DNA of 64,000 bases, taken from positions 1 to 64,000 of the forward strand of contig JBGPQP010000002.1 of assembly GCA_041489155.1 (NCBI GenBank), written 5' to 3'. The DNA comes from Candidatus Aenigmatarchaeota archaeon (GTDB lineage: Archaea; Aenigmatarchaeota; Aenigmatarchaeia; QMZP01; QMZT01). The translations under genes and the position numbers were made by a program. Below the pieces are notes generated by a model, which worked only from the letters and a program-made list of their open reading frames with translations, made no database searches and was not told where the DNA came from. Positions 25,515 through 46,090 of this stretch are shown here, piece after piece (positions within the stretch are counted from its first letter, which is position 1; the number at the start of each line of letters is the position of its first letter).

Positions 25515-25527
25515 AAGGAGGGATAGC

Positions 25528-26706: not shown

Positions 26707-26743
26707 TGCATACGGAGTATGCGTCTTTTGAAGGAGAGTGATT

Positions 26744-28042: not shown

Positions 28043-28088
28043 GTTTCCTACTTGTTTTGAATTTAAATAAAGATGCGCAATTTTAACT

Positions 28089-28865: not shown

Positions 28866-28881
28866 ACTGTGAATGATTATT

Positions 28882-30286: not shown

Positions 30287-30310
30287 AGTAAAAGATTGAA
30301 GCCGGGATTT

Positions 30311-30619: not shown

Positions 30620-30672
30620 GTTTAAACATTTTTTGTTAGATTTATATCCACGAAACCAATTTATTAAATTGG

Positions 30673-31251
30673 GTGGGGCCTATAATCAAGAATGCTGAAA
30701 CAAAGGATAGAATAGAGAAGGAAGACATGAAAAGGGCGATAAAGGAAAACGACATAATACTGGTCCTTGTGCCTAACGAGAAGTATTCGGAAAAAATAAA
30801 CGACGTCGCCGGAATAGCGGCGAATCTCAGCGAAAAGGTATGCTACGTTTCGGCAAACAAGCCCTACACGACTTTGGTCAAGAACTTCGAGAAAGCCAAA
30901 ATCGACACCAGCAAATTCTGCTTCATCGACTGCGTGACCAAAAGTCCATCGGGAACGAAAGCCGGCGGCAGGGTCGTCTGCGTCTCATCGCCGAAGGCCC
31001 TGACCGAAATGAACATAGCCATGAAAAAGCTCCTGGAGGCGAACAAGCCGGGCATAACGGTCTTCGATTCCCTGTCAACGCTGCTGATATACGAAGACTC
31101 TTCAGTGGTTACAAGATTCGTGCACTCGATAATATCCGTTTTCCGCTCCCTTGGTTCCAAGGGCGTTCTCATTTCGCTGAAGGATGAAGTGAAAAACGAG
31201 CTGGTCAAAGACCTTGGCATGTTCGTGGACAAGGTCGTGGAAATGGGGTAA
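30673..31251 (+). CDS. Inactivated KaiC/RecA-like ATPase domain protein
   Basis: CYVSANKPY, FIDC, VFDSLSTLLIY, DKVVE; no Walker A. Confidence 0.75.
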   Translation: MGPIIKNAETKDRIEKEDMKRAIKENDIILVLVPNEKYSEKINDVAGIAANLSEKVCYVSANKPYTTLVKNFEKAKIDTSKFCFIDCVTKSPSGTKAGGRVVCVSSPKALTEMNIAMKKLLEANKPGITVFDSLSTLLIYEDSSVVTRFVHSIISVFRSLGSKGVLISLKDEVKNELVKDLGMFVDKVVEMG

Positions 31252-31266
31252 GGTTTTGGTGATCAA

Positions 31267-32547
31267 ATGCCAAAGGATAGTCCGGAAAATTATAAAAGAA
31301 CGATAGAAAAAGGCATCGTAGAGACAGTGCGGGAGCCTTTGATAGTGCTGGATGCTGACCTAAAGGTAATCTCAGCCAACAAATCCTTCTACCGGAGCTT
31401 TAAAGTTAACCCTAAGGAAACCCAAGGCCGGTTAATTTACGATTTGGGCAACCGACAGTGGAACATCCCCAAACTGCGAAAGCTCCTGGAGGAGATACTT
31501 CCCAAGAGCACCACAATTGAGAACTACGAGGTTGAGCACGACTTTAAGACCATTGGACCGAAAAGAATGCTTTTAAATGCCCGCCGCATTGAGTCCACGC
31601 AGATGATCCTCCTTGCCATCGAGGACATCACCGAGCGCAAGAAGGTTGAACAAATAACAGCAGAAAAAATGAAACTGGAATCTTACATTGAAGGCATGAG
31701 CGACGGTGTTGTAATCCTCAACCTCAAAGGCGGAGTTATTGATGTAAATAAATCCTACAGCAGAATGTCTGGACGGGAAAAAGGCGAGGTAGTGGGCAAA
31801 TTAGCCTTTTCAGTAGGAGATTTGCCAAAGAAAGAGTTTCTAGGAGCTCTTTCAATGATAAAAGAAATAATCCAGAAAGGCTCTATAGAAAACAGGGAAC
31901 TCACCCTGTTAAATAAAGAGAAAAAGGAAGTTTCTATTCTATTTAGCGCTGCTTTAATAAAAGATAGCCGCGGTAAACCAGAAAGCATATTTGCTGTTTT
32001 TAAAGACATCACCGAGCGCAAGCGGACGGAGGAGGCGTTGAGGAGGAGCGAAGCTCATCTTAAGGAAGCGCAGTCGCTGGGGCGAATTGGAAGTTGGGAA
32101 TTTGATGTTGAAAAACAAACCATCGTCTGGTCCGAAGAGACCTATGGTTTGTACGAGCGTGACCCCAAGCTTGGTCCCCCTTCTCCAGAGGAAGAGGCAC
32201 GTTATTATTCAGCTGAACAGGCAAAAACATTAAGGGATTATGCCGCCAGAGCTATAGAAACCGGAAAGAAATTTTCTTACGACCTCACGGCAAAATTGCC
32301 CAGCGGGAGAACTGTTTACCTTGCTGCCACCATGCGGCCTGTAAAGGACGAGCGCGGACGGGTAGTTAAACTGTTTGGAACGGTGCAGGACATAACGAAC
32401 CGGAAAATTAAAGAGGAGGAGCTCAGGAAGAGAACGGAAGAGTCAGAGAGGTTCAGCAAGCTTTCTGTTGGCAGGGAGCTGAAGATGGTGGAGCTGAAGA
32501 AAAGGATAAGCGAACTGGAAAACCAAATAAAAGAGAAACCCAAATGA
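31267..32547 (+). CDS. Three-PAS/PAC sensor protein with C-terminal coiled coil and no kinase domain
   Basis: Three PAS domains ending DITERK/DITERK/DITNRK; GRELKMVELKK tail. Confidence 0.88.
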   Translation: MPKDSPENYKRTIEKGIVETVREPLIVLDADLKVISANKSFYRSFKVNPKETQGRLIYDLGNRQWNIPKLRKLLEEILPKSTTIENYEVEHDFKTIGPKRMLLNARRIESTQMILLAIEDITERKKVEQITAEKMKLESYIEGMSDGVVILNLKGGVIDVNKSYSRMSGREKGEVVGKLAFSVGDLPKKEFLGALSMIKEIIQKGSIENRELTLLNKEKKEVSILFSAALIKDSRGKPESIFAVFKDITERKRTEEALRRSEAHLKEAQSLGRIGSWEFDVEKQTIVWSEETYGLYERDPKLGPPSPEEEARYYSAEQAKTLRDYAARAIETGKKFSYDLTAKLPSGRTVYLAATMRPVKDERGRVVKLFGTVQDITNRKIKEEELRKRTEESERFSKLSVGRELKMVELKKRISELENQIKEKPK

Positions 32548-32620
32548 AGCCCAAGCAATGTTTAAACAAAGGCTATAATTTATATACAAACAAAACAATC
32601 CTATTAAGTAGGAGGCACTA

Positions 32621-33184
32621 ATGCCGGAGGGGAAAATGCCCAAAGAAAAAGCTGCAGAAAAGGATTCACCTTTTTCTATTAAGATTCTGATAGTTAGTTT
32701 TATTTTTGGTGTAATAGCATTGGGCGTGGTTTTGGGTGGATTACTCCTCCCAATCCCGGGTACAAATGTGAAAACAGACCCGCGCGAGCTATTCACAACC
32801 TACGGGGCTGCATTCTCTGGCCCGATTGGAGGGATAATCGTAGGCATTCTTGCTGGAATTGCAGAACCTAACGGAATTCCACTGGCAAGTCTGTTAGGCC
32901 ACATAGCTGGATGTTTGTGGATGGGTTTTGCCTACAAAAAAATCATTTACAAAAGATTTGCATCGAGTTATCTTATCTTTCCTGCATGGTTTGCCGCCAT
33001 TTTAATTTATTACTACGTGTTTGTTATACCGGGGTTTATCATAGGCCTGGCATGGTTTTATAATCAGCCCCTCCTCATTATGGAAATGCTTTTGGGCGGA
33101 CTGCCAGAAGCTTTATTGACCAGCATAGTTACAACACTGGCTTTGTTTGCAATACCAAAGGCCTATCGAAAACCTTTATGGTAA
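32621..33184 (+). CDS. Integral membrane protein (ECF S-component/5TM sensor-like)
   Basis: ~5 TM segments, DPRE motif, GPIGG. Confidence 0.7.
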   Translation: MPEGKMPKEKAAEKDSPFSIKILIVSFIFGVIALGVVLGGLLLPIPGTNVKTDPRELFTTYGAAFSGPIGGIIVGILAGIAEPNGIPLASLLGHIAGCLWMGFAYKKIIYKRFASSYLIFPAWFAAILIYYYVFVIPGFIIGLAWFYNQPLLIMEMLLGGLPEALLTSIVTTLALFAIPKAYRKPLW

Positions 33185-33212
33185 GTAGTATACTTTCGCT
33201 ATATGATACTAA

Positions 33213-34988
33213 ATGTCGCAAGTAAAAGGTAATGCAAAAAAATTTGTCTTTTTCCAGAGATTTAAAAACACAATAGCCACCAAATTAACCATATGGTTCC
33301 TTCTACTTTCGTTAGCCCCTCTTTTTATTTTGTTTGTTTTTGTCTGGAACAACGTTGATCAGCAATTTATTGAGATGACAACGCAAAATATGTATGAACA
33401 AACAAAATTATTGGGAACGGAAATTTCATTGCTGGACAATACGGATTCGATCAAAACTTTATTCATCCAAAACCACAGCAAAAAATTCGAGTCTTTCGTA
33501 GTAGGCACAAATGAAACTAATGTTGTTTATTTCGGCGAAAGGGGGAAATTTGATGAAATCTATAATAAAATTTCAACAGAAATTATACGTCAAATCTCAA
33601 TAAAAAGTGATGGGGTATTTGTCGATGCCGACAAAAAATGGGCCGCCGCTTTTTACAAAGTCCCCGGAAAGGAATTCATTGTAATATCATTCGTGGATAT
33701 ATCAGACGCCCTTTTGCCAGTTACTCAAATAGAGAACACCGGGCTTAGTCAAATTGGCGCGGCTCTTTTTGTTGCAGCAGTGGTTAGTGGTTTATTCATA
33801 TTTTTGACGCTGAAACCGATACAAGAGTTAGTCAAGTCAACTGAAAAGGTTAGGGCTGGAAATCTTGATATTCGCATTGATCCCTCAAGGTTTGAAGGTG
33901 AGATGGAAACCCTTGCAATTGGTTTCGAACAAATGATAAAGGATTTGAAAATATACCAGAACCAGATAAAAAAACACGGGGAGGAACTGGAACAGAAAGT
34001 TACAAAAAGGACGAAGGAATTGGACACGAAGATCAATGAGCTGACGGCCACGAAAACCGCGGTCCTTAACATGATGGAAGACACGGACGAAACCAACAAA
34101 AAGCTTGTAGAGACGCAGGAAGAACTTAAGAACAGCCTCGAGGAACTGAAGAGTCTGGACGTGAAAAAGGACGAGTTCATATCGATTGCGGCTCACGAAC
34201 TGAAAACGCCGTTAACCTCTATTCACGGATTTTCCCAGTTGTTGCAGAACAGGGATGTCGCGAAGAATCCTGAAAAAAGGGAGAAATACCTTAAAATCAT
34301 GGACAGCGAAACCAAAAGGCTCGCGAAACTCGTGACCGACATACTCGACCTCTCTAGGATAGATTTGGGGACCCTTAAGCTGAATTTCGAGGAAGTTGAG
34401 ATAAGCAGGTTAATGGAAGACGTGAGAAGGGAGATGAACGTTCAGATGAAGAAGAGGGGTTTGAAATCGGAGTACGACCTAGAGAAGGGATTGCCGGACA
34501 TCGTGACTGACAAGGAAAGACTTACGGAAATCCTTCTGAATCTCATAAACAACGCGATTAAATACACGCCAAAAGGAAAGATAACGGTTAAAGTTTCTAG
34601 GGAAAACGATTTCGTACATTTCACAGTGAAGGACACGGGGATAGGGATAGAGAAGGAGTATTATGACAAGCTTTTCCAGAGATTCTACCAGATCGATTCT
34701 TCTTATACGAGGAAAGCCGGTGGCACAGGTCTCGGTCTCGCCCTTTGCAGGGAATTCGTGACGCTTCTCGGCGGGAAAATATGGTTTGAGAGCGAGGAAG
34801 GGAAAGGGAGCGAGTTCCATTTCATCCTCCCCTTAAAAGGCGTCAAAAAAGAAGTGATGAGCGAGGAAGAAAGGAAAGCCAGAGAGGCATTAAATAAATC
34901 AGAAAGAGTAAGTAAAAAATTGGAAAAACCGGGATTAGGCCTTAGCTTTTTCTTTAAAGTTTTTCCTGATTCCTTTATCTTTGGTTAA
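33213..34988 (+). CDS. Membrane sensor histidine kinase (2 TM, HAMP, HisKA, HATPase)
   Basis: AAHELKTPL H-box, NLINNAIKY, DTGIGI, FQRFYQ, GGTGLGL. Confidence 0.95.
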   Translation: MSQVKGNAKKFVFFQRFKNTIATKLTIWFLLLSLAPLFILFVFVWNNVDQQFIEMTTQNMYEQTKLLGTEISLLDNTDSIKTLFIQNHSKKFESFVVGTNETNVVYFGERGKFDEIYNKISTEIIRQISIKSDGVFVDADKKWAAAFYKVPGKEFIVISFVDISDALLPVTQIENTGLSQIGAALFVAAVVSGLFIFLTLKPIQELVKSTEKVRAGNLDIRIDPSRFEGEMETLAIGFEQMIKDLKIYQNQIKKHGEELEQKVTKRTKELDTKINELTATKTAVLNMMEDTDETNKKLVETQEELKNSLEELKSLDVKKDEFISIAAHELKTPLTSIHGFSQLLQNRDVAKNPEKREKYLKIMDSETKRLAKLVTDILDLSRIDLGTLKLNFEEVEISRLMEDVRREMNVQMKKRGLKSEYDLEKGLPDIVTDKERLTEILLNLINNAIKYTPKGKITVKVSRENDFVHFTVKDTGIGIEKEYYDKLFQRFYQIDSSYTRKAGGTGLGLALCREFVTLLGGKIWFESEEGKGSEFHFILPLKGVKKEVMSEEERKAREALNKSERVSKKLEKPGLGLSFFFKVFPDSFIFG

Positions 34989-35110
34989 ACATAAATAGGT
35001 AACCTTATGTGTTACAATTCATCTCCAGCTGAAGGCAGGGAGATTCTTGCTCCAAGTTATTTAAAATTCTTAAAAATCTATAAATTCTCGATGGTATTCT
35101 TTTAGGTTTG

Positions 35111-35482
35111 TTACCCAACAATTTTCTTTACCCTTCTTACGAGGTCTTCGTTGTCGAAAGGTTTGGTTATGTAATCAAGCACTTTCATTTTCTCAAGCAC
35201 ACCCTTGCCGGCTTCCGAGAATTTGGCGACCGTGAGAAACGCCACCTTCAGGTCCTTGGTCTTCGGGTCCTTCCTTATCCTTTCGCACACTTCCCTTCCG
35301 CTCATGTCAGGCATCATCATGTCGAGAAGTATGAGGTCAGGTTTAACGGTTTTCAGTTTTTCCAGACATTCCTTTCCGTCGGAAGCTGTTATCACTTCGT
35401 AGCCTTCGTTAGCGAGAATCGCCTCCACGAGCTGCAAAAGGCTATCTTCGTCGTCCACGACCATTATCCTTTTCTTGGTCAT
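35111..35482 (-). CDS. Stand-alone receiver (REC) response regulator
   Basis: VVDDE, LLDMMMP, FLTV, YITKPF. Confidence 0.95.
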   Translation of the reverse strand: MTKKRIMVVDDEDSLLQLVEAILANEGYEVITASDGKECLEKLKTVKPDLILLDMMMPDMSGREVCERIRKDPKTKDLKVAFLTVAKFSEAGKGVLEKMKVLDYITKPFDNEDLVRRVKKIVG

Positions 35483-35540
35483 AATTATCTTATTCGCTTT
35501 CCTTATTATATATTTTTCATGCTGTTCCTATTCTAGCCTT

Positions 35541-36092
35541 TCATCCCAAATCAAGCGTTTTGTCAGCAAACATTTCCAAGTCTTTCACCAGCTTCTGGTT
35601 CTCTTCCACGGGAATGGTATCGTGTTTTAGCACTATAAACAATTTCTTTATGTTCTCTTCTTTCTCGTCCGCCAGCAAATGATGCGTGAATTTGACCACA
35701 GAAGAAGTTTGCTGATAAATTAACATGGTCGAAATCGTATCGAAGAGTATCACGCTGCATTGCTTCTCCTCGATCGCTTTTCTTATCGCAACCCTTATCG
35801 CAGCTAAATTGTTGGGGGAGGTTATGAAGATACAGTTCTTGACAGGCTCCGGTTCCTTGTAATAAGACGTGAGAACATCAACGAAAAAGAAGTTTGATAT
35901 GTCAATTCCTTTATTCCCCAGCTCTTCCACGACATCGGTGTAAGGCTTGCTCAGGCAGACGTAGCATATTTTTGTCCTGGTTTTCTCTATGGATTTTATT
36001 ATCTCCTCAAGTTTCGAGAGACACTCCCTCTCCTCCATCAGAATTAGCAGGAATTTGTTGTTTTCAATCTCCTGAAGCAAGTTCACTGTCAT
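35541..36092 (-). CDS. Second inactivated KaiC/RecA-like domain protein
   Basis: CYVCLSKPY, FVDV, LFDTISTMLIY, FADKTL; paralogue of 30673..31251. Confidence 0.75.
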   Translation of the reverse strand: MTVNLLQEIENNKFLLILMEERECLSKLEEIIKSIEKTRTKICYVCLSKPYTDVVEELGNKGIDISNFFFVDVLTSYYKEPEPVKNCIFITSPNNLAAIRVAIRKAIEEKQCSVILFDTISTMLIYQQTSSVVKFTHHLLADEKEENIKKLFIVLKHDTIPVEENQKLVKDLEMFADKTLDLG

Positions 36093-36193
36093 AATAAGAG
36101 TAATTGGTGCCAGCGATTTATAAATTTTAAGCATAAATGTTTAAACATTAATAGAAAATTTAAATACTATTTAACTATATATATAATAAAGGT

Positions 36194-37015
36194 ATGTACA
36201 AATTTAAACATAAAAATATCTTATTCTTTCTTTCAGAACTTAGGAGATTCGTCAGAGTCGAAACTGATATGGTGGTAGTATGCATGGCCCTTTCAGGTTA
36301 TCTGATCTTCAATGCCCCGGCCTCCGACATGCTTTTCCTTGCTTCGGCTTTGTTCTTCGCAAGCGGCGCAGGCTACGCATATAACCATTACACGGATAAA
36401 GAGGAGGACATAATAAACAACAGATACCTGAACTTTTTTGCGACCAGCAAAAAGGGCTATTATATAGTGCTGGCTTGCGTGATCATTGGCATCGCGTCGG
36501 CAGCGCAGCTATCTCCGCTATCCTTCGGGATATACCTTATTTCCATGGCTGCCGGCATCGCCTACTCCGCCTTCAGGGTCAAGAAATTTTTCCCTATGAA
36601 AAACGTGTACTCAGGATTTTTCATGTCCACGTCATTCCTTATAGGGGCAACCGCAGGCAACCAGATTCTTTACGGAGTGATTCCATATTTCCTCCTGGTG
36701 TTTCTGATAGGTCTGACAGGGAATCTTCTCGGGGACGTGAGGGGACATGAGGGCGATAAAATCGCTGGAGTCAATACCATCCCCGTAAAACTGGGAACAA
36801 AAACAGCGAAAAGGATAATACACTTTAATTTTGGACTTTTTTCGCTCACGAGCATAATGTCCGGCTATGTGCTGCTGACGCCGATAATACCATCCCTCGC
36901 AGCGACATCGTTCTTCCTGAACAGGAATGATCACAGGAGAGCGAGGTCAAGCATGATATCAACGTTTTTGGTGCTGGTTGTTTTTTTGGCCGCCGTCAAA
37001 ATTACTGGTATTTGA
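36194..37015 (+). CDS. UbiA-family prenyltransferase
   Basis: NHYTDKEEDIIN and DVRGHEGDKIAGVNTIPV Asp-rich motifs; multi-TM. Confidence 0.85.
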   Translation: MYKFKHKNILFFLSELRRFVRVETDMVVVCMALSGYLIFNAPASDMLFLASALFFASGAGYAYNHYTDKEEDIINNRYLNFFATSKKGYYIVLACVIIGIASAAQLSPLSFGIYLISMAAGIAYSAFRVKKFFPMKNVYSGFFMSTSFLIGATAGNQILYGVIPYFLLVFLIGLTGNLLGDVRGHEGDKIAGVNTIPVKLGTKTAKRIIHFNFGLFSLTSIMSGYVLLTPIIPSLAATSFFLNRNDHRRARSSMISTFLVLVVFLAAVKITGI

Positions 37016-37016
37016 A

Positions 37017-38069
37017 ATGTGTGTTGTGACATTCGACTGGGAGCATAATGATGCCATGGAGAAGGTCAGGAATTATGCTATCAACAAGTCAATGGTATGG
37101 GCCGTTGTCGAGGTGACCGATAGCTGCAACCTTAACTGCATCTGGTGCTATGCAAACTCCGGCTGCAAGAGCGCGCCAAGGCACATGAGCCTCGGGAATC
37201 TGAAAAGCTTAATCAAAATTCTTGCGGATTCCGGCATAAAGCAGATAACCTATTCTGGCGGCGAGCCGACACTTTACCCGCATATCAAGGAAGGGGTAAG
37301 GATAGCGAAGGATTGTGGCATGGTCGTGCATATGAACACAAACGGGTTTGTGCTGGTTAAAAGCTTTGCAAAGGAGCTCAAAAGGGCAGGCCTCTCACAG
37401 ATACAGACAAACATAGACAGCCTTGACCGGGAAAAACACGACTATATAAGGGGCAGAAAGGGCTCCTTCGACAGGGCCGTCAGGGCCCTGAAGAACGGAA
37501 GGGAAGCTGGCCTGACCTGCACCTCCCAGACTGTTCTGACAAAAAAGAATGAAAATGAAATAATCGACATATTCAGGTTTGCGAGAAGCCTGAGCCTGCA
37601 GAGGTGCAGGGTATGGGACATGATGCCGGCAGAAGGCTGCGGGCTGAAAAACTCTGACATGAGGCCGACAAACTACTTAAAAACCTTGTATGAGCTCACC
37701 CAATTCGCAGAGAGCACGGGAGGGAAACATATAGAATCAGGCGAGCCGTTTTTCCCGCTGAACCACAAAACAGGCATAAAGGTTTCGAATATTTCATGCG
37801 TGGCCATGCACGGCCTTTTGATCAACATTTCATACACCGGTGACGTTTATTACTGCGTCACGCAGAGAAAATCCATGCTTAATGTTTTCACGGAATCAGA
37901 AGGGGATCTGAAGGAGTCTTACAGGACGAAGCTGAAGGCCTTCCTGAATTCTATCAGGCTTCCGGAAAAATGCCTAAATTGCCAGCTGGTCGAGAAGTGT
38001 CGCGGAGGATGCTATACCAGGTGCATGCATACGGAAAACAAAGCGGATTACTGGTGCCCCGTGGCCTGA
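37017..38069 (+). CDS. Radical SAM protein with SPASM domain
   Basis: CNLNCIWC, SGGEP, C...GDVYYC, CLNCQLVEKCRGGC, DYWC. Confidence 0.92.
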   Translation: MCVVTFDWEHNDAMEKVRNYAINKSMVWAVVEVTDSCNLNCIWCYANSGCKSAPRHMSLGNLKSLIKILADSGIKQITYSGGEPTLYPHIKEGVRIAKDCGMVVHMNTNGFVLVKSFAKELKRAGLSQIQTNIDSLDREKHDYIRGRKGSFDRAVRALKNGREAGLTCTSQTVLTKKNENEIIDIFRFARSLSLQRCRVWDMMPAEGCGLKNSDMRPTNYLKTLYELTQFAESTGGKHIESGEPFFPLNHKTGIKVSNISCVAMHGLLINISYTGDVYYCVTQRKSMLNVFTESEGDLKESYRTKLKAFLNSIRLPEKCLNCQLVEKCRGGCYTRCMHTENKADYWCPVA

Positions 38070-39074
38070 TCATCTCCCGTATGTTACTCTGACGCACTTT
38101 CTCGATGCGGAAATTTTTCTGATTTTGAAATTCTTGTCTATCAGCCATAGATAGCCAAGGATTGAGTTTATCAGGAAATTCCAGTTGTCTTTCTCTTTCT
38201 GGATTCCGTACGGCGGATTCCTTATCTCGAAGAGTATGTTTTTCCTGACCATGATTTTTACGGATCCCCATCCCATCGCCTGTAGAAGCCCTTTCAGCAG
38301 GTTAAGTTTTCCTTTCGGCGAGGAATTTCTCTCAACGGTTTTTTTGAAGAAATTGTATGATATTTCCGGCACCTTGTCCATCAGGATGCCCGTGTTTCCC
38401 AGAAGATGAAACAGGGTGTTTTCAACTGGATATAGGGGTCTGTCCCTGAAATAAATCCTGTTTTTCCTAAGCTTGAATAAATTATGCCTTAGGGCGCTTA
38501 CGATGCTTGACCCTTCAAGCGAAGGGAGGGTGTTCAGCTGGTCATACACGTGTTTGGCTTTGTGTTCGATGCGGAAGGGTTTCGTTCCTCTGGTCCTGAA
38601 AACATACGTGTTTGAACTTCCGGACTGTAAGACGCTAATCACGTCTGCCTCCGAATTAAACAGAATGTTGCAAATCCCCGTGAAAAGCCCTACGGAAAAT
38701 TCGTTTTTCCCGACAACTTTTGTTATGGCCTCATTCCTGGTTTTAATCTCTATAAGGCCGTTTTTTTCTGATATGCTGAAGTCGTCCATCAGGCCGCCGT
38801 CGGCCCAGACATTCCTCATGACCCTGCCCAGGACAAAGAGGGGCAATTTTTTGATTGAGGCCGGGACGATTTCCATGAAGTAAAGCATCATCCATTTGCT
38901 GCCTGTCTCCTTCATCTCTTTGCCGTAGCCGGCATTCTCGCATGTCTTTATGTAGTCTGTGAATATGTCATTGAAAAACAGAGTATCTCTCCTTTTTCCT
39001 ATTCTGAGTTTGTTCAGCAAGCCTCCGTGGGATGATTCCAGAATCTTCCTCCTCAAGAGCTCGGACATTCTCAT
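38070..39074 (-). CDS. Hypothetical protein with probable tandem V4R-like small-ligand-binding domains
   Basis: Two similar halves; AMGWG motif and FSVGLFTGI helix typical of V4R folds (by eye). Confidence 0.55.
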   Translation of the reverse strand: MRMSELLRRKILESSHGGLLNKLRIGKRRDTLFFNDIFTDYIKTCENAGYGKEMKETGSKWMMLYFMEIVPASIKKLPLFVLGRVMRNVWADGGLMDDFSISEKNGLIEIKTRNEAITKVVGKNEFSVGLFTGICNILFNSEADVISVLQSGSSNTYVFRTRGTKPFRIEHKAKHVYDQLNTLPSLEGSSIVSALRHNLFKLRKNRIYFRDRPLYPVENTLFHLLGNTGILMDKVPEISYNFFKKTVERNSSPKGKLNLLKGLLQAMGWGSVKIMVRKNILFEIRNPPYGIQKEKDNWNFLINSILGYLWLIDKNFKIRKISASRKCVRVTYGR

Positions 39075-39119
39075 AGATATTTTTTGAATCCTGTATAAAA
39101 ATTGATGCGAAGCCGGGGA

Positions 39120-39785
39120 TCAGATGATCTTCGTCTCTGCCAGTTTCAAATCTTTCTCATCTATGACAAATTCGTACGGTATCTTGGGTTCGAAATTCGC
39201 ATAACGCATCTTGTGCACTGTCATCGTTCTCATCGGCTTTTCCTCCAGCTCGAGGAATGAAAGCGAAAGCACGCCGTCGCATTCGAACGACTCGCCGTTG
39301 CCCGTGTCCGTGTTCTCGCCCCTGGTCTCGCAGATAAGAAGCGTGCATCCCATGGATTTCAGGCTCCTGACGAGCTCGGAGAGATAGACCCTGTACGATC
39401 TGTCGTTCTCCGCGAATATGAGCAGCTTGTTGACGTTGTCTATCACGAGCCTGTCGATTTTCGGGTAAGAGGCGATTATGTCTATGAATTTCTTCATGGT
39501 TATGTTCTCGCCCAAGGGTATGTGCTCTATGGCAAAGTTCTTGCCCACGTATTTTTCGGCCTCGCTGAGTGCTTCTATACCCTTGCATGCGCGCAGGAGC
39601 TCTTCCTTGGTCTCATTCAAAGAGACGTAGCAGCACTTCTCCTTTTTCATAACGCCATCCATCAGGAACTTGAGCGCGAAAAGTGTCTTGCCTGAACCAG
39701 GACCGCCTGAAACGAGTACGGTCGTCCTTGCGGGGAAACCGCCTCCCAGAAGCTTGTCGAGTTTTTTGATGCCTGTGGTTATCAT
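39120..39785 (-). CDS. KaiC/RAD55-like ATPase
   Basis: TGIKKLDKLLGGG, GGPGSGKT, LVIDN, KMR. Confidence 0.9.
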   Translation of the reverse strand: MITTGIKKLDKLLGGGFPARTTVLVSGGPGSGKTLFALKFLMDGVMKKEKCCYVSLNETKEELLRACKGIEALSEAEKYVGKNFAIEHIPLGENITMKKFIDIIASYPKIDRLVIDNVNKLLIFAENDRSYRVYLSELVRSLKSMGCTLLICETRGENTDTGNGESFECDGVLSLSFLELEEKPMRTMTVHKMRYANFEPKIPYEFVIDEKDLKLAETKII

Positions 39786-39786
39786 A

Positions 39787-40128
39787 TCATCTCACCTCAT
39801 CCTCATCCTTGAATACGGGTATGCCGAACGTGGATTTTTTGAGCCTTATGATAAGGAAAACGTCATCGTGCAGTTTGAACGCCTTGGCCGGGACCTTTTT
39901 GTCCATGTTTTTTATTTCGAACTTTTCCAGTATCTTCTTGGGCATCATTATCCTGTTGCTGTTGCCAAGCTTCCCTGTCGTCAGGGAATTGACCATGAAG
40001 TTTGGCGCTGTCGGGATAAGAACGAGGTTTGTGGTCTGGTTGGTTATAAGGTCGTACTCGGCCTTCGAAACCTTCAGGTTTACTATTATTTCGTCTTTCT
40101 GGATGTCGACTGACTGCACATCGGCCAT
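39787..40128 (-). CDS. Small hypothetical protein, possibly AbrB-like swapped hairpin
   Basis: GKLGNSNRIMMPKKIL; immediately upstream of the KaiC-like gene. Confidence 0.6.
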   Translation of the reverse strand: MADVQSVDIQKDEIIVNLKVSKAEYDLITNQTTNLVLIPTAPNFMVNSLTTGKLGNSNRIMMPKKILEKFEIKNMDKKVPAKAFKLHDDVFLIIRLKKSTFGIPVFKDEDEVR

Positions 40129-40222
40129 AAGTTATATATTTTGTTCAAATATTTAAACTTTTGGACCGGTTTCTTATCGCAAACCGAGGAAAATTTATTA
40201 GCGCCCGATTCAATACTTCTAC

Positions 40223-41080
40223 ATGGCTTCTGGAAAGGGGAAAAAGACGGGCAAGAAGGAAGACAAAAAGACAGAGGAAATGGCAGAAAAAACAGAGGAA
40301 AGGGGGTTAAACAAAGAAAAGGCGAGGCCGGTGGAAAAGGAGGATTCCCGTTTCATAAAAACGGGGATCTCCGGTTTTGACAAGCTGCTTGAAAAAGGGA
40401 TACCAAAGGGGTCAGCGGTTCTGATAGCAGGCGGCGCAGGATCGGGCAAGACGATAATGTGCCTGCAGATCCTAGCTAATGCCGCGAAAAGCGGAAAGAA
40501 GTGCATGTACATGTCCTTCGAGGAATCCGAATCCCGCCTCCGCAAGCACATGGACGACTTCGGATGGAACCCCGCCAAACTCGAAAAAAACGGTAATCTT
40601 ATGATAAAGAGGATGAATTCTTATGAGATCGCAAGGTCGGTGGAGGCGATGCTGACGAAGGAGCGCGGCGAGCTGATGATAGACATAGAGCCCGTCCTCT
40701 TGCCCGAAGGTTTCAGGCCGGACATTATAGTCGTCGATTCCCTAAGTTCGATAGCTTCCTACTTCACCGGGAGAACCGAGCATTACAGGGGCTACATAGA
40801 GCAGATTTTCAGGCACTTCGAAAAGATGGGCATTACATCCTTCATGATAACCGAGACGAAGCAGATTCCCGAGACGTTCAGTCCGACGGGCGTCGAGGAG
40901 TTCCTGGCGGACGGCGTAGTCGTCCTGTACAACATACGCAAGGGCGACGTGCGCGAGAACGCCATCGAAATCCTCAAGCTCCGCGGGGCGAAACATCTGA
41001 AAAAGATAGTGGCCATGCAGATTGTCGACGGCGAAGGCATCGCAATCTATCCGGAGCAGGAAGTCTTCGGCGGCCTGTGA
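40223..41080 (+). CDS. KaiC/RAD55-like ATPase with charged N-terminal extension
   Basis: TGISGFD, GGAGSGKT, SFEE, VVDSL, EEFLADGV, KLRG. Confidence 0.92.
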   Translation: MASGKGKKTGKKEDKKTEEMAEKTEERGLNKEKARPVEKEDSRFIKTGISGFDKLLEKGIPKGSAVLIAGGAGSGKTIMCLQILANAAKSGKKCMYMSFEESESRLRKHMDDFGWNPAKLEKNGNLMIKRMNSYEIARSVEAMLTKERGELMIDIEPVLLPEGFRPDIIVVDSLSSIASYFTGRTEHYRGYIEQIFRHFEKMGITSFMITETKQIPETFSPTGVEEFLADGVVVLYNIRKGDVRENAIEILKLRGAKHLKKIVAMQIVDGEGIAIYPEQEVFGGL

Positions 41081-41114
41081 TTGCGGCGATTGCAGTCTTC
41101 TTATAATTCATGCC

Positions 41115-41273
41115 CTATGTCCAGAGCTCGTCCATTTCTTCCTGAGGCTCGAAGACCACGCCGAATTTCGAGAAAACGGTCGAACATTTGGGACAAATGA
41201 AAGCCTCAGGCTGCTTGTTCCACAGCTTCCCGTAAGTGCCGCAGGTGGGACAATTGTAATCGAACAGAAACAT
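41115..41273 (-). CDS. Small Zn-ribbon protein
   Basis: CPTCG...CPKC; acidic C-terminus. Confidence 0.65.
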   Translation of the reverse strand: MFLFDYNCPTCGTYGKLWNKQPEAFICPKCSTVFSKFGVVFEPQEEMDELWT

Positions 41274-41324
41274 GCTTGTACCTTTCCCTCCCATCAACCG
41301 AACAAAAAGATTGCAAAAAAGCAA

Positions 41325-41720
41325 TCACTTTAATTTATTTTTGTTGCCAACTTTTATATTGTTTTTCTGTGCGTAATCAAGAATTGCGAGCCTTTTCTTC
41401 CTTCCGACAGTCGAGGCGATGATTGCGATTTCGTCTTTTTTGTTTATTTTTTCAATTTCCATGACATTCCTCACAACGATTTCCATGTAGCCTTCCCTGT
41501 TGAGGCCGCGGACTCCGACGGGAGAGCCGTAACCCGGTCTTGGAAGCGCGCCTCTCGCTTTCCTGTGCTCGCGGAGTTTCGAGTGGATGCCCCTGGGCTT
41601 TCTCCACTTGTCGCCGACGCGCTTCATCCTGAACCATTCCTGGCGCCTGAAAGAGGGTTTCTTCTTCTTTATCCTTTTTCTGATTTCAAGCAGCTCTTCT
41701 TTGCTTTTATTGTTTTTCAT
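41325..41720 (-). CDS. rpl32e: 50S ribosomal protein L32e
   Basis: KPSFRRQE, WRKPRGIHSK, PGYGSP. Confidence 0.96.
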   Translation of the reverse strand: MKNNKSKEELLEIRKRIKKKKPSFRRQEWFRMKRVGDKWRKPRGIHSKLREHRKARGALPRPGYGSPVGVRGLNREGYMEIVVRNVMEIEKINKKDEIAIIASTVGRKKRLAILDYAQKNNIKVGNKNKLK

Positions 41721-42255
41721 CCTCTCCCTCCACGTAAGGCGACCTGGTTATGTAAATGCCGTCCTGAAAAACACGCTTGTCGTAGCCCCTGATCTTGGTG
41801 GTCTGCTCTATTCTGCCGCAGACCTGCCCGACCCTTTCCTTATCCATGCCTGAAACATAAACCGCGTTCTTGTCTATTTCGACTTTCATGTCCGCCGGGA
41901 CCGGAACGGTTCTAGGGCTCTTCTCACCAAGGAAGTTGTCTATGTAAAGCTTGCCGCCCTCGATTTTCAGCTTCACCGGGAAATGGGTGTAAACCAGCTT
42001 GAGTTCGCCCTTCCATCCCTTGGTGACGCCGATGAACATGTTCCTTATCAGAACCTGCCAAGTTCCTATTATGGCCTTTACCTTTTTCCTGTCAATGCCG
42101 GAAACGAGGGTGATTTTCCTTCCCTCCAGCTTCAGGCTGACCTGCGGGTTCTGGAGCATCTTGCTGACGCTGCCTTTACTGCCCTTAACGTTAAGGGTGT
42201 TATTTTCCAGCGTCGCCTCGATTCCTTCCGGAATTTCTATTTCAGTTTTCAGCAT
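41707..42255 (-). CDS. rpl6: 50S ribosomal protein L6
   Basis: VYTHFP, NFLGEK, DKRVFQDGIY. Confidence 0.96.
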   Translation of the reverse strand: MLKTEIEIPEGIEATLENNTLNVKGSKGSVSKMLQNPQVSLKLEGRKITLVSGIDRKKVKAIIGTWQVLIRNMFIGVTKGWKGELKLVYTHFPVKLKIEGGKLYIDNFLGEKSPRTVPVPADMKVEIDKNAVYVSGMDKERVGQVCGRIEQTTKIRGYDKRVFQDGIYITRSPYVEGEDEKQ

Positions 42256-42306
42256 ACCATGACCTCTTGAAATATGAATATCTTTAGAAGGTAATATATT
42301 TAAGCC

Positions 42307-43563
42307 TTATTTCTTTTTCCTGGAGGCTTTCTTCTCCTTGGTTTTCTTGGCTGCGGGAGGCCTTTCTCTTTTCTTCTCTTCCTTTGCCTTCTTTGCTGTT
42401 TCTTCCTTGGCCGCCTCTTTTTCTTGTTCGGGTTCCGCCTCTTCCTTCTTTATCTCAGGCATGCGGCCGATCAGCGTGAAGGCGCCCGTTCCCATGGGTA
42501 TCACCTGGTTCATTATTATGTTTTCCACGTGGCCCTTCAGAGGGTCCTTCAAGCCTTCTATTGCGGCGGCTATAATATGTTTCTTGGTTTCCTCAAAGGC
42601 CATCCTGGCGAGGACCGAGTCCTTGTTGCCGGCTATGCCATAACGCCCTATGCCCATTATCCTTCCGTTCGACGTCATAAGGTCGGCAAGTATCGAGACA
42701 TAGCGGATGTCGACGCCGAGGCCCTGCTCGCTTATGGTCTCGACCGCTTCCTTTATGATCGCGTTCCTCGCGGCCTCGACGCCAAGCACGTCGTATACCT
42801 CAAAGGGGTTGTTGCATGTCGTTCTCGTAGCATCGACGCCTTCGATTGAAAGCACCTTGCGCAGGTTCGAACCGAGCGTTGAAATCACCCATTCGCCGCT
42901 GTCCTCCTTGCTCACGATCACGTGGGAGATGTTCTTGACCCCCTTTATGTGGGTTTCCAGGAGCTTGTACTTGAGCTTGTGGAGGTTGATGCTCTCGGCC
43001 TTTTTGGAAGTGACTATGAGTTCCCTGCCCTTTGAATCGACATCGACGTTCTTCAGCTTTACGTGCTTCGTCAGCTCCTTCGGGTCAAGGTCGAATTTCT
43101 TCAGCTTTTCTATGTCCAGATGGCACGAAACGGTCAGGTTTATCAGGTCTATGACATCGCTGAGCACGAAGTCCTTGAGCTTGACTTCCTTTATCTTCTT
43201 GGCGATTTCTATCGCCTTGTCTTCCGTGTTGTGCTCATGCATGAGGTATATGGTCATGCTCGGCGTCTCGGGCTCCTTCTTGGCGTCGAATATCTCGGCG
43301 AGCCTCGGAAGGCCCAGCGTGACCTGGATGCCCGCAGTACCTGCGAAATGGTACGTACGCATGGTCATCTGCGTCGCAGGCTCTGAAAGCGACTGCGCTG
43401 TGACGACGCCGATCGCTTCTTCAGGGTCGTACATTGACATCTTGTAGAAGTGCCTGACCTTTTCCAGTATCTCCTTTCTTTTATCCTCGTCCAGCCCCTT
43501 CCTCTTGCAGTAATCCTCGACTTCATCTCTTATCTTTAAAGGCAGTCTGTCCATGTTAACCAT
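42307..43563 (-). CDS. rpoA2: RNA polymerase subunit A'' (Rpo1C)
   Basis: AQSLSEPATQMTMRTYH, TLGLPRL, ARMAFEET. Confidence 0.96.
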   Translation of the reverse strand: MVNMDRLPLKIRDEVEDYCKRKGLDEDKRKEILEKVRHFYKMSMYDPEEAIGVVTAQSLSEPATQMTMRTYHFAGTAGIQVTLGLPRLAEIFDAKKEPETPSMTIYLMHEHNTEDKAIEIAKKIKEVKLKDFVLSDVIDLINLTVSCHLDIEKLKKFDLDPKELTKHVKLKNVDVDSKGRELIVTSKKAESINLHKLKYKLLETHIKGVKNISHVIVSKEDSGEWVISTLGSNLRKVLSIEGVDATRTTCNNPFEVYDVLGVEAARNAIIKEAVETISEQGLGVDIRYVSILADLMTSNGRIMGIGRYGIAGNKDSVLARMAFEETKKHIIAAAIEGLKDPLKGHVENIIMNQVIPMGTGAFTLIGRMPEIKKEEAEPEQEKEAAKEETAKKAKEEKKRERPPAAKKTKEKKASRKKK

Positions 43564-46090
43564 GCTCCACGTAATCCACCCAGTTTAGCTTGCCCCAGTC
43601 GGATTTGGTCGGGTCAATGCCGTCGTCTCCGGCATAGAACTGGATAACGTTGCCATTCGAATCTCGTACGCTCATGTCGTCCCAGACCTTCAGATCCTGC
43701 AGGGAGTTCATGAGGCGGCGCTGCATGTAGCCCGATTTCCTCGTGCGCAGCGACTTGTCCATGAGGCCCTCGCGGCCGTTCATCACGTTCCAGAAAAATT
43801 CGAAGGGCGTCAGCCCCTGTTTGAAGCCGCGCGCTACGAAGCCCCTTGTCTCGGCAGAAAGGTCGCCGACTCTGAAATGCGTCGTGGTCCTTCCCATGTA
43901 GCCTCTCTGTATCCTCTTTCCGAGAATGGTTTCCGAACCTACGCAGGCAGACATCTGGGTCGTGTTTATGTTCGAACCCTTCGCGCCTGAGCCGGACATC
44001 ACGAGGATGTCGCTCGGCTTGATATTCTTTATCATGATATCGCTTACCTTGTTCAGGCCTTCGGCAAGGGTGGAAAGTATCTGGGTTTCAAGCGATTCCT
44101 CCGGCGTCATGCCGGGGAGGATTTTGAGCTTCCCCTCGCCGAACTTGTCGACCAGCTTGTCCGAATCTTTCATGGCCTTCTTTATCTCGTCCTCAATCAC
44201 ATGCTCGACCCTTGCCGGCACGTCGAGATCAGAAATGCCGATGGAAAACCCTCTCATCATGAGGTATGACGCACCGACCCTTCCGAGGCGGTCTATGAAG
44301 TTCTTTAGCTCGTCGTCGCTGACGAGGCGCCTTACCTTGTTGAGCATTTTCCCCTTGAAAGCGCCGACCGCCCTCGTGTCTATCACTCCACTTTTCAGCT
44401 CGCCGTTCTTTATGCAGACCCAGCAGTCGTGCTTGCATTCCTCCTTGGAGCACCTGTCGCACTCCTTGCAGGCATTCGCCTTGAAATTCATGTTGAGCTT
44501 CTTGGGCAACAGAAGGCTTACTATTTCCTTGCCGGTGAACTCCTTCTTGTCGGGAAGCTCAAGGTCTATCGCCGCGCGCGATAAAAGCTCTGCCGCCGCC
44601 TTCCTCGAAAGGACAGTCTCACTCTTGGTAAGGAGGTACATGCCCGATACTTGATCGAGGTCCAGGCCCACCAGCGGGCCGCCGAACCTCGGGGAAATTA
44701 TGTTATTCTTGACCTCCATGAGCATGGATGCTTCGACCTGCGCTTCCTCGGACTGGAGGGCATGGATGTTCATCTCGTCGCCGTCGAAGTCTGCGTTGTA
44801 AGGCGCGCAAACGCTCGGGTTCATCCTGAACGTGCGGTAAGGCATTACCTTTACCCTGTGAACCATTATGGAAACCCTGTGAAGCGAAGGCTGCCTGTTG
44901 AACAGGACGACGTCGCCGTCCTTAAGCTGCCTGTCAACGCTCCAGCCCGCTGCAAGGTTTGTAGTTATGTCCTTCCTGTTCTCTTCCGTGACCTTTATCT
45001 TCCTGCCGTCAGGCCTCGTTATGTAGTTCACCTTGCCGTCCTTTATCATGTCCTTTATGTTCTTGATGTTGAGCTGTGTGATGGTCTCCGGGATTGTCAG
45101 CTCTTTCGCGACCTCCTCAGCGGGAATGCCGACCTCGTTTATGGAAAGCGTCGGGTCGGGCGAGATGACCGTGCGTGACGAATAGTTAACCCTCTTGCCG
45201 AGCAGGTTCCCTCGTATGCGCCCTTCCTTTGCCTTCAATCTCTGGATTATGCCCTTTAACGGGCGTCCGGATCTGTGCCTCGCCTGGGGGATGCCGGTCA
45301 GCTCGTTGTCGAAATAAGTCGCGACATGATATTGCAGCAGCTCCCACAGATCGTTGAGTATGAATTCGGGCGCGCCGATGTCTATGTTCTCCTTGAGCGA
45401 CTGGTTTATCCTGACTATGTCGACTAGCTTGTGGGTGAGGTCGTCCTCCGAGCGCTCGCCCGTCTCCAGCGTAATCGACGGCCTCATGGTGACCGGCGGT
45501 ATGGGGAAAAGCGTCAGTGCCAGCCATTCGGGCCGTCCGCCGCGGAAGCCGATCTTCTGAAGATCCTCGTCAGGCACGCGCTCGCACCATTCCCTTATCT
45601 GCATCGGGTTCAGCTCTTCCTTGCCGTAATAATAAGTATAAGGCTTGACGAATGTGACCTTGCTTCCCTGCTTTTCGCAGTGAGGGCATTTCCTTAGCGG
45701 CGCCTTGGAAACCTGATCCAGCGAGCGGGGCGCCTTGTGCAGGAGCCTGCCACATTTGGAGCACGTCGCTTTCAGCAGCTGGTATACCTGCTTGGTGTAG
45801 AGAACATGAACAACCGGCCTTGCCAGCTCGACGTAGCCGAAATGGCCCGGGCAGTCTCCTATCGCGCCGCCGCATGTCCTGCAACGAAGGCCTGGATCAA
45901 CGACTCCCATTCTCGGATCCATCGCCCCTCCGTCGACCGGGTAGCCGTCGGCGTCGTAAAGGTCGGACGTGACAATCCTTACCGTCGCCAGGGATTTCAT
46001 TATGACCGGCGAAAGCAAGCCGAAATCAATTGAACTTATCTTCGATGAACTTATCTTCGAGAGATCCATACATCCACCATCAGATTTCAA
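43556..46090 (-). CDS. rpoA1: RNA polymerase subunit A' (Rpo1N)
   Basis: CPGHFG, NRQPSLH, catalytic NADFDGD, SGYMQRRL; start may be MDLSK at 46069. Confidence 0.97.
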   Translation of the reverse strand: MKSDGGCMDLSKISSSKISSIDFGLLSPVIMKSLATVRIVTSDLYDADGYPVDGGAMDPRMGVVDPGLRCRTCGGAIGDCPGHFGYVELARPVVHVLYTKQVYQLLKATCSKCGRLLHKAPRSLDQVSKAPLRKCPHCEKQGSKVTFVKPYTYYYGKEELNPMQIREWCERVPDEDLQKIGFRGGRPEWLALTLFPIPPVTMRPSITLETGERSEDDLTHKLVDIVRINQSLKENIDIGAPEFILNDLWELLQYHVATYFDNELTGIPQARHRSGRPLKGIIQRLKAKEGRIRGNLLGKRVNYSSRTVISPDPTLSINEVGIPAEEVAKELTIPETITQLNIKNIKDMIKDGKVNYITRPDGRKIKVTEENRKDITTNLAAGWSVDRQLKDGDVVLFNRQPSLHRVSIMVHRVKVMPYRTFRMNPSVCAPYNADFDGDEMNIHALQSEEAQVEASMLMEVKNNIISPRFGGPLVGLDLDQVSGMYLLTKSETVLSRKAAAELLSRAAIDLELPDKKEFTGKEIVSLLLPKKLNMNFKANACKECDRCSKEECKHDCWVCIKNGELKSGVIDTRAVGAFKGKMLNKVRRLVSDDELKNFIDRLGRVGASYLMMRGFSIGISDLDVPARVEHVIEDEIKKAMKDSDKLVDKFGEGKLKILPGMTPEESLETQILSTLAEGLNKVSDIMIKNIKPSDILVMSGSGAKGSNINTTQMSACVGSETILGKRIQRGYMGRTTTHFRVGDLSAETRGFVARGFKQGLTPFEFFWNVMNGREGLMDKSLRTRKSGYMQRRLMNSLQDLKVWDDMSVRDSNGNVIQFYAGDDGIDPTKSDWGKLNWVDYVEHG

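Follow-up and report, generated by a model that had tools for sequence, protein, structure and literature searches.

A hypervariable prenyltransferase, radical SAM and V4R-like gene cassette beside a KaiC-like ATPase operon in an Aenigmatarchaeota genome

Why should genes for a membrane prenyltransferase, a radical SAM enzyme and a soluble V4R-like protein be packed almost without spacers in a small archaeal genome, and do they work together? We addressed this question with a stretch of 64,000 nucleotides (hereafter the window) of contig JBGPQP010000002.1 of a Candidatus Aenigmatarchaeota archaeon (assembly GCA_041489155.1). The genome has 1.13 Mb in 39 contigs and is 89.65% complete, and the nearest relatives of the window's proteins are labelled Candidatus Aenigmarchaeota or Aenigmatarchaeota. 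The three genes encode, in this order, a divergent UbiA-family membrane prenyltransferase of 273 aa (36194..37015, plus strand, PF01040), a radical SAM enzyme of 350 aa with a SPASM-type C-terminal domain (37017..38069, plus strand, PF04055), and a soluble protein of 334 aa assigned by its fold to a tandem V4R/Bet3 type (38070..39074, minus strand). A first-pass annotation of the window had proposed that they make and sense a prenylated molecule. We found that the UbiA gene, a second enzyme gene, which in other genomes need not be the radical SAM gene, and the V4R-like gene make up a hypervariable cassette that is inherited and swapped as a unit. In the reading that we favour, at about an even chance (roughly 0.5), the three genes form one unit of function and evolution, a "maker plus matching binder" cassette that varies from strain to strain and is plugged into a signalling module that stays conserved. 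The hypervariability, the optional radical SAM gene and the KaiC/AbrB operon described below are additions to the first-pass annotation.

The gene junctions were as the first-pass annotation had described them. The TGA of the UbiA gene ends at 37015 and the ATG of the radical SAM gene stands at 37017, so that 1 nt lies between them, and the stop codons of the radical SAM and V4R-like genes abut (TGA at 38067-38069, then TCA, which is TGA on the minus strand, at 38070-38072). Inside the unit the gaps measure 1 nt and 0 nt, with 59 nt and 45 nt separating it from its neighbours, and no gene for a precursor peptide fits into it, which also agrees with that annotation. As there is no spacer at 38067-38072, there is no room for a terminator between the convergent radical SAM and V4R-like genes. 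Transcripts from both sides would have to overlap, and this junction is a possible point of antisense control.

The first-pass annotation had also considered that the radical SAM and V4R-like genes might not be linked to a UbiA gene elsewhere. We gathered 64 loci, of which 34 came from the sampled genomes and 30 were loci of named records reached through alignment of the radical SAM protein. Fourteen loci were excluded because the same contigs had been reached twice. Six more were excluded for lack of a V4R-like gene scoring over 150 bits: in four of them the contig stops at or within the radical SAM gene, another has just a part of the V4R-like gene, at its contig end, and the sixth is locus L081, which is discussed below. 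All open reading frames (ORFs) of at least 60 aa were scanned in the 44 non-redundant loci that remained. A UbiA-family gene was present in the convergent cassette in all 42 assessable loci, and the other two loci end at a contig edge. Seen from the radical SAM side, among the 30 loci with an orthologue of this enzyme the UbiA gene precedes it in 29/29 assessable cases and the V4R-like gene follows it in 25/26. It means that the linkage holds nearly everywhere. Since the three-gene arrangement recurs in dozens of genomes, it is far beyond chance.

The V4R-like profile matched 46 of the 301 sampled genomes of the phylum (one match was weak and partial), with the matches concentrated in three families of one order (17/22, 7/11 and 13/35 genomes), and 4 of 38 genomes of the phylum that contains Candidatus Hydrothermarchaeum profundi. 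Altogether the cassette was found in metagenome-assembled genomes labelled Aenigmatarchaeota, Hydrothermarchaeota, Altiarchaeales, "Nanohaloarchaea" and "Nanoarchaeota". What stands between the UbiA gene and the V4R-like gene differs. A radical SAM gene of the window type was found in 26 of the 44 loci, and in its place four loci have a divergent polyprenyl-synthase-like gene. A further UbiA gene occupies this position in two loci, seven loci have only two UbiA genes, a geranylgeranyl-reductase-like flavoprotein occurs in one and a UbiE-like methyltransferase in two; one locus has nothing there, and one was not assessable. The outer edges of the cassette often carry a homocitrate/isopropylmalate-synthase-like gene and an aminotransferase gene; the homocitrate-synthase-like gene was not found in the host genome with one protein query.

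Genes of ordinary function would be expected to diverge in step with the rest of the genome, and one rival explanation is of this kind: the three are housekeeping lipid genes which are neighbours by chance. Comparison with genomes of the same genus gave a different picture. RNA polymerase A' was 88-91% and the KaiC-like protein 83-87% identical, while the cassette proteins were 37-38% (UbiA), 54-57% (radical SAM) and 41-49% (V4R-like) identical. The Hydrothermarchaeum copies shared 33% (UbiA), 55% (radical SAM), 44% (V4R-like) and 55% (KaiC) with the window, so the cassette proteins of the window are no closer to the same-genus copies than to those of another phylum. In closer pairs of genomes the contrast was sharper, with V4R-like proteins only 38-45% identical where KaiC and RNA polymerase were 93-99% identical. 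Loci L059 and L145 have KaiC proteins 98%, 110-aa proteins (the family of the 113-aa protein described below) 95% and RpoA1 99% identical, but their V4R-like proteins are only 39% identical and their enzyme sets differ; for L057 and L143 the values were 93% (KaiC), 97% (RpoA1) and 38% (V4R-like). Housekeeping genes would not be 30-40% identical where RNA polymerase is 88-99% identical.

Breakpoints could be placed on the DNA. Between L143 and L057 the flanks were 88.6% and 90.8% identical, and within 6873-9635, an interval which contains exactly the UbiA, radical SAM and V4R-like genes, only 614 nt matched (64.8%). Between L145 and L037 the identity was 84.5% and 82.2% outside a divergent interval of 3.6 kb, which runs from about 140 nt within the V4R-like gene to a point within the homocitrate-synthase-like gene. 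The window itself aligned with the same-genus loci L148 and L143 at 69-77% up to 36149-36153 and again from 39120-39160, and within these breakpoints only part of the radical SAM gene matched (67-68%). The variable interval is therefore 36194-39074 almost to the base. Locus L055 carries the same allele as the window (87% DNA identity). Contigs of four sediment sequencing runs gave only short pieces of low depth over 31000-45000, with the same allele in three runs and an allele of roughly 93% identity in one. All ten cluster cysteines of the radical SAM enzyme and the catalytic Asp/Asn residues of UbiA were invariant across the aligned alleles; thus these are working genes and not decaying ones.

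The members of the cassette also vary together. Pairwise identities of the radical SAM and V4R-like proteins were correlated (Spearman 0.72, 231 pairs), in contrast to those of the V4R-like and KaiC-like proteins (0.15, 630 pairs), and the value for the KaiC-like and 110-aa proteins was 0.50. In a maximum likelihood tree of 34 V4R-like proteins, cassette type needed 8 changes (shuffle mean 15.9; none of 300 shuffles reached 8) and taxonomic family 13 (shuffle mean 17.8; 1/300). The tree of 35 KaiC-like proteins showed the reverse pattern, with 8 changes for family (0/300) and 13 for cassette type (3/300). The trees were restricted to loci whose family code was known, and L137 was left out of the cassette count. 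Thus the phylogeny of the V4R-like protein tracks enzyme type rather than taxonomy.

UbiA-superfamily enzymes are defined by two Asp-rich motifs (NxxxDxxxD and a second one, D...GD) and by multiple membrane helices. The UbiA protein of the window fits this definition, with both motifs kept and hydrophobic segments present: residues N64, D68, D72, N75, D181, G187 and D188 were invariant in 29 aligned sequences, among them the candidate DGGGP synthase of the same genome, and PF01040 was matched at E 2e-26 (93.3 bits, cut-off 34.2). No curated subfamily was reached among the NCBIfam models, where the best match was PRK12884 (70.6 bits, cut-off 269). The only PDB sequence match was the DGGGP synthase 6m31 (E 1.9e-6). 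That this nearest solved relative is a lipid enzyme, and that mevalonate genes lie 6 kb upstream, would suit housekeeping lipid genes. The first-pass annotation had itself raised the possibility that the UbiA is the housekeeping DGGGP synthase. This did not hold: the host genome has four UbiA genes, and the one on contig 9, which is 22% identical to that of the window, is the best DGGGP-synthase candidate, with 249.6 bits to NF009521 and 214.5 bits to NF009523, against 56.9 (cut-off 296) and 70.6 (cut-off 269) for the window gene. A true tetraether synthase (Tes) is likewise encoded on another contig. In addition, the linkage recurs across phyla and persists after a rearrangement (locus L064). 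With a better DGGGP-synthase candidate elsewhere, the linkage, the divergence of the V4R-like protein and the DNA breakpoints, we consider the housekeeping explanation refuted and give it almost no weight.

Radical SAM enzymes of the SPASM type have a C-terminal pattern of seven cysteines, including CX2CX5CX3C, and two auxiliary clusters. In the enzyme of the window (PF04055, E 6.7e-33, 114.6 bits) the cluster motif CX3CX2C (C37, C41, C44) and the C-terminal C261, C280, C319, C322, C328, C332 and C347 were invariant in all 13 aligned sequences. The spacing C319-x2-C322-x5-C328-x3-C332 fits the SPASM pattern, and homologues are named SPASM by JGI; no match to the Pfam SPASM model was reported for the window protein. 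The start codon is likely ATG 37017, because 9 of the 13 aligned orthologues, the window's own counted, have their N-terminus (MCVVTFDWE) at this position. NCBIfam models of radical SAM/SPASM enzymes align with it end to end (NirJ2 over residues 45-358), and it stays below all their equivalog cut-offs: NirJ2 128.6/500, AhbD 112.6/500, MftC 106.3/265, PqqE 80.3/381 and Tes 76.3/450 bits. Identity as a tetraether synthase was rejected with this last score, as the true Tes on contig 14 reaches 722.7 bits. Orthologues were 45-90% identical (41% in one outlier without a V4R-like gene), and beyond these identity was 35% or lower. Among the defence models of PADLOC the enzyme gave only generic matches of the radical SAM core to viperin models (84 bits, residues 33-207); UbiA, the V4R-like protein and the 113-aa protein had no PADLOC match, and the remaining hits were weak P-loop matches.

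The same three superfamilies meet in tetrapyrrole metabolism, where BchG belongs to the UbiA family, BchE, AhbD and NirJ are radical SAM enzymes, and BchJ is a V4R protein. By analogy the locus could be a tetrapyrrole-tailoring trio. The top NCBIfam matches of the radical SAM enzyme are indeed NirJ2, AhbD and AhbC, chlorophyll synthase models occur among the weak NCBIfam matches of UbiA, and haem-binding H-NOX domains share the fold of the V4R-like protein. All those scores are far under the cut-offs, however, and the alternative enzymes in other alleles are isoprenoid and not tetrapyrrole enzymes. A search for ALAD (PF00490) in the host genome, which is 89.65% complete, gave no match; the control was positive in 11 of 14 reference genomes. 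A tetrapyrrole product is thus very improbable in our view.

V4R domains have an alpha/beta fold with helices on a four-stranded antiparallel sheet, and two conserved GxxxG glycine pairs, in helices 2 and 5 (PMC2253512). The third protein had been annotated as tandem V4R-like, and this held for the fold of both halves and not for the sequence: the window protein had no match to the Pfam V4R model at E<=10 and no other Pfam or NCBIfam match. When 57 members of the family were searched at E<=1, PF02830 was not among the 25 families listed of the 26 found. In one look-alike cluster of the Atlas, V4R was present on 12% of members. The AlphaFold model has a mean pLDDT of 90.3 and a pTM of 0.89. Its N-terminal half (residues 18-165) matched the V4R protein MJ1460 (2oso; Z 9.1, rmsd 4.3, 129 aligned residues), and other structural matches were MopR/PoxR (Z 8.6-8.8), Bet3/TPC6 (8.1-8.7) and BcsD (about 10). 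A separate model of the C-terminal half (pLDDT 78.2), compared with 48,161 chains without Foldseek, matched PoxR (5fru; Z 9.6, rmsd 3.5, 142 aligned), DmpR (9.4), BcsD (9.3), MJ1460 2oso (9.1) and TRAPP subunits (8.0-8.2), followed by lower matches of the same fold, namely YslB (7.9), more TRAPPC3/Bet3 chains (7.5) and H-NOX (6.8-5.9); unrelated folds scored Z 6 or below.

In the N-terminal half, G129xxxG133 in the last helix is nearly invariant, the second helices of the protein carry no such pair, and in the C-terminal half a single G307 is invariant in the matching helix. The two halves had no detectable sequence similarity (hhalign probability 0.5%), and so the tandem nature is read from the fold only. 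The protein has no transmembrane segment, and its family is small and tight, as a search of 1.84 billion proteins gave 253 representatives at E<=0.001. Comparison of V4R-like proteins between near-identical genomes showed a slightly better kept N-terminus and no clear conserved docking segment along the protein. As a separate observation, the V4R-like gene of the same-genus locus L148 (G159:C2:853299-854304) stands in two frames (residues 1-113 and 111-335), which points either to a frameshift in this copy or to an indel from the assembly of the 1.1-Mb contig; in L084 both the radical SAM gene and the V4R-like gene are split in a similar way.

The V4R-like gene is the last of a minus-strand operon of three genes. 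The first encodes a protein of 113 aa with an invariant LTTGKLGNSNRIMLPKK-type motif (39787..40128, minus strand), and the second a single-domain KaiC-like ATPase of the RecA superfamily with 221 aa (39120..39785, minus strand). These two accompany the V4R-like gene in 38/38 assessable loci, directly upstream of it in every locus but L064, in which both now lie on the opposite side of the cassette. The ATPase matched PF06745 with 138.4 bits (cut-off 26.6) and reached no NCBIfam equivalog; its Walker A (GGPGSGKT) and Walker B (RLVIDNV) motifs, with G30, G32, K33, T34 and D116, were invariant in 25 sequences. The 113-aa protein is a putative AbrB/MazE-type swapped-hairpin DNA binder, which is a weak inference: 7 of 23 family members matched PF04014 weakly at E<=1 (best E 0.0029) and the window copy did not, the family profile found only MraZ (E 0.67), and in the Atlas only archaeal clusters without names were found.

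Considering these features, we picture the favoured "maker plus matching binder" reading as follows. The membrane UbiA enzyme would attach a prenyl chain, taken from the cell's own isoprenoid pathway, to an acceptor, as its family and conserved catalytic residues suggest. The product would then be tailored by radical chemistry of the three-cluster radical SAM/SPASM enzyme; in other alleles a second or third UbiA, a polyprenyl-synthase-like enzyme, a geranylgeranyl-reductase-like flavoprotein or a methyltransferase would act instead, and the product would thus differ from strain to strain. To judge from its fold, its solubility and its co-variation with the enzymes, the tandem V4R/Bet3-fold protein may bind the hydrophobic product in the cytoplasm or at the inner face of the membrane. 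The operon structure points to the KaiC-like ATPase and the small AbrB/MazE-like protein as the next partners, with altered transcription as the probable output; these two stay conserved while the cassette is swapped. The character of a sensor is consistent with the best structural matches, which include the effector-binding domains of PoxR, DmpR and MopR. Local sensing of a prenylated product, as the first-pass annotation had it, gains real support, as the V4R-like gene shares an operon with the KaiC-like and AbrB-like genes and co-varies with the enzyme set.

The structural matches can also be read in another way. Bet3 carries a buried acyl chain, and palmitate-bound TRAPPC3 (6aq3) is among the matches; BcsD, a polymer-handling protein without a signalling role, scores like the V4R sensors. 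The locus could then be a lipid-handling machine that makes a strain-specific membrane or envelope lipid, with the V4R-like protein as a carrier that extracts or hands over the hydrophobic intermediate and the KaiC-like ATPase as its power source. Viruses would drive the diversity, or recognition by the host in lineages that are symbiotic. Every variable enzyme is a paralogue of a membrane-lipid enzyme, and loci for surface structures are typically hypervariable islands with conserved flanks, as seen here. Against a lipid-handling machine stand the resemblance of the small conserved protein to AbrB/MazE-type DNA binders, the signalling-rich neighbourhood (histidine kinase, response regulator, degenerate KaiC and second KaiC), and the ATPase and small protein, which do not co-vary with the cassette and so better suit a generic transmitter than a product-specific machine. 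No transporter or flippase gene was conserved in the 44 loci. We regard this explanation as the main rival, and as rather unlikely.

The absence of a precursor gene raises a further rival, in which the V4R-like protein itself is the substrate, cross-linked or lipidated by the SPASM enzyme, by UbiA or by both, in the way that SPASM maturases act on peptides. No precursor gene fits in the cassette, the identities of the radical SAM and V4R-like proteins correlate as given above, C45 in the first helix is near-invariant, and Bet3 is covalently acylated on a cysteine according to the title of 6aq3. On the other hand, the radical SAM gene is missing from 17 of 43 assessable cassettes where the V4R-like gene is always there, the protein has no conserved Cys- or Ser-rich target stretch apart from C45, and we know of no UbiA enzyme that prenylates proteins. 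This explanation is quite improbable.

Several points weigh against the favoured reading of maker and matching binder. The first is the frequent lack of the radical SAM gene just mentioned. In five genomes with a cassette of this kind no orthologue was found elsewhere (best hit 140 bits, partial), and it means that the enzyme is not essential to the system. The second is locus L081 of one Hydrothermarchaeota genome, with a distant UbiA-radical SAM pair (41% radical SAM identity) and no V4R-like gene; such a gene was absent from this locus and from genome G305, and the pair may predate its capture by the sensor module. Third, 18 of 31 inner branches of the V4R-like tree are open, related genomes in the tree and correlation tests are not independent, and simple co-transfer of adjacent genes would give rise to co-variation too. 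Fourth, the V4R assignment is by fold only, with Z scores of 9-10 that lie just moderately above the usual background of 7-8, and BcsD, which is not a sensor, scores equally well. The DNA-binding role of the 113-aa protein is a weak assignment (7/23 members, window copy not among them). Finally, 15 of 45 cassette-bearing genomes have no isopentenyl phosphate kinase (IPK) above the cut-off, one of them with a split gene at 117.6 bits.

The last point concerns the supply of the prenyl chain. The first-pass annotation had the cassette fed by a neighbouring mevalonate cluster. The window does contain, at 22051-29883, genes for mevalonate kinase (22051-22983), a UbiD-family decarboxylase (24228-25514), an aconitase-X-like dehydratase (25495-26706), UbiX (27126-27701), IPK (28089-28865) and type-2 IPP isomerase (28873-29883), a set that looks complete and that we take to be the archaeal-type mevalonate pathway. 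This adjacency was found only in part of one family, and so it is not a conserved feature of the cassette; feeding of the cassette by this cluster is plausible, if weakly founded. IPK was above the cut-off in 30 of 45 cassette-bearing genomes (hand tally), the overall figure being 119 of 301. A polyprenyl synthase is present in each of the five tested carriers without IPK, and a supply of isoprenoids is plausible everywhere. The pattern of polyprenyl synthase present and IPK not above the cut-off was seen in genomes of family f4 (for example G099, G189, G061, G107 and G035).

Is such a combination known? Regulators like DmpR, MopR, PoxR and XylR are activators responding to phenols and other aromatics, composed of a V4R sensor, an ATPase and a DNA-binding domain. 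The locus resembles them in joining a predicted V4R-fold effector-binding protein, a P-loop ATPase and a putative DNA-binding output. It differs from these activators in that the functions are split over three proteins, with two V4R-like domains in tandem and no Pfam V4R match, that the ATPase is of the KaiC/RecA type and not of the AAA+/sigma-54 type, that the output would be AbrB/MazE-like and not a helix-turn-helix, and that the ligand would come from adjacent genes and not from outside.

Polymorphic loci for a signal synthase and its receptor are known from the ComQXPA pherotypes of Bacillus and the agr groups of Staphylococcus, and ComQ is an isoprenyl-transferring enzyme. As in these, the putative synthase and receptor are hypervariable and co-vary between close strains, with transmitter, regulator and flanks conserved, and in four alleles a polyprenyl-synthase-like gene replaces the radical SAM gene. 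Unlike them, the locus has no peptide precursor and an archaeal host, and its receptor is predicted to be a cytoplasmic V4R fold where theirs is a membrane histidine kinase. Archaeal ether-lipid enzymes (DGGGP synthase 6m31, geranylgeranyl reductase, GGPP synthase and Tes 7tol) are a third point of comparison. The variable cassette enzymes are all distant paralogues of such isoprenoid-lipid enzymes; they differ in being far below the family cut-offs and hypervariable, with better candidates elsewhere in the genome. Lastly, the single-domain KaiC-like ATPase and degenerate KaiC/DUF835 proteins beside two-component genes are like the archaeal KaiC-like signalling neighbourhoods, which Makarova, Galperin and Koonin reportedly surveyed in 2017.

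No description of the UbiA, radical SAM and V4R-like combination or of its hypervariability was found in the literature, the 2017 KaiC survey being outside the search. Nothing was found that joins Aenigmarchaeota with radical SAM and UbiA or prenyltransferase, and V4R with prenyltransferase and archaea gave only unrelated work. The portion of Galperin 2018 considered here mentions V4R only as a relative of the MetOD1 output domain (PMC5847659). So the superfamilies are known, and the logic of a maker with its cognate sensor is known from bacteria, while the combination and its hypervariability appear new within the literature searched. A bolder idea is that the locus serves communication or kin recognition and would be the first in archaea to be polymorphic in the manner of pherotypes. 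In it, a strain-specific, prenylated, membrane-permeant molecule made by a swappable enzyme set would meet a co-inherited tandem V4R receptor that switches a KaiC-type ATPase and an AbrB-type regulator, with alleles exchanged across phyla (Aenigmatarchaeota, Hydrothermarchaeota, Altiarchaeales). We offer this only tentatively, and would be inclined to bet against it.

How archaea signal to themselves or to others is little understood, and the ligands of V4R proteins and of the abundant archaeal KaiC-like ATPases are almost unknown. The locus offers a defined and testable pairing of a small enzyme set, a soluble putative binder and a conserved ATPase and regulator, with natural alleles in the dozens that could be used to control for specificity. 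As a signal, the product would make the locus an isoprenoid-based counterpart, in archaea, to the pherotype systems of bacteria; as a strain-specific lipid, it would show that the membranes of these tiny and often symbiotic archaea vary in a way that has been hidden so far. New chemistry of radical SAM and UbiA enzymes acting on archaeal lipids would be indicated too.

The flanks of the cassette are rich in signalling genes. On the UbiA side lie a degenerate KaiC-like protein of the DUF835/DUF7504 type (197 aa, 35541..36134, minus strand, weak matches to PF05763 and PF06745), a receiver-domain response regulator (123 aa, 35111..35482, minus strand) and a HAMP/HisKA/HATPase histidine kinase (591 aa, 33213..34988, plus strand), and a PAS protein also occurs on this flank. 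The degenerate KaiC-like family and the response regulator belong to the conserved left flank, the former flanking the cassette in many loci, and a homologue of the histidine kinase stands near the cassette in many loci as well. On the other side, and divergent from the operon, a second KaiC-like ATPase (285 aa, 40223..41080, plus strand, PF06745 with 183.1 bits) forms the conserved right flank and is 72-76% identical in same-genus genomes. The response regulator is 81% identical to a copy in another taxonomic family (L041:5143-5511, PF00072 at 95 bits), far more conserved than its neighbours. The 142-aa ORF on the opposite strand to it (35108-35536) is probably spurious.

Judged from its gene content, the host genome appears to make its own tetraether lipids, having the mevalonate set, the DGGGP-synthase candidate on contig 9, Tes on contig 14 and a geranylgeranyl reductase (GGR) of 780 aa in the window (60459-62801, minus strand). 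The family matches of this GGR are split (residues 12-215 and 594-741), and its middle region matches the intein part of an intein-containing Tes model.

Elsewhere in the window, an ORF of 1589 aa (4415-9184, minus strand) had no NCBIfam match at E<=1e-15, and neither had the ORFs of 339 and 380 aa that flank it. The G+C content was 0.35-0.49 across 30000-40200, compared with about 0.53-0.55 on both sides. A foreign origin of the 30-40 kb region was considered because of this low value, but the shift is too modest to support it. The minimum, 0.345, lies in 33000-33599, where the histidine kinase gene begins.

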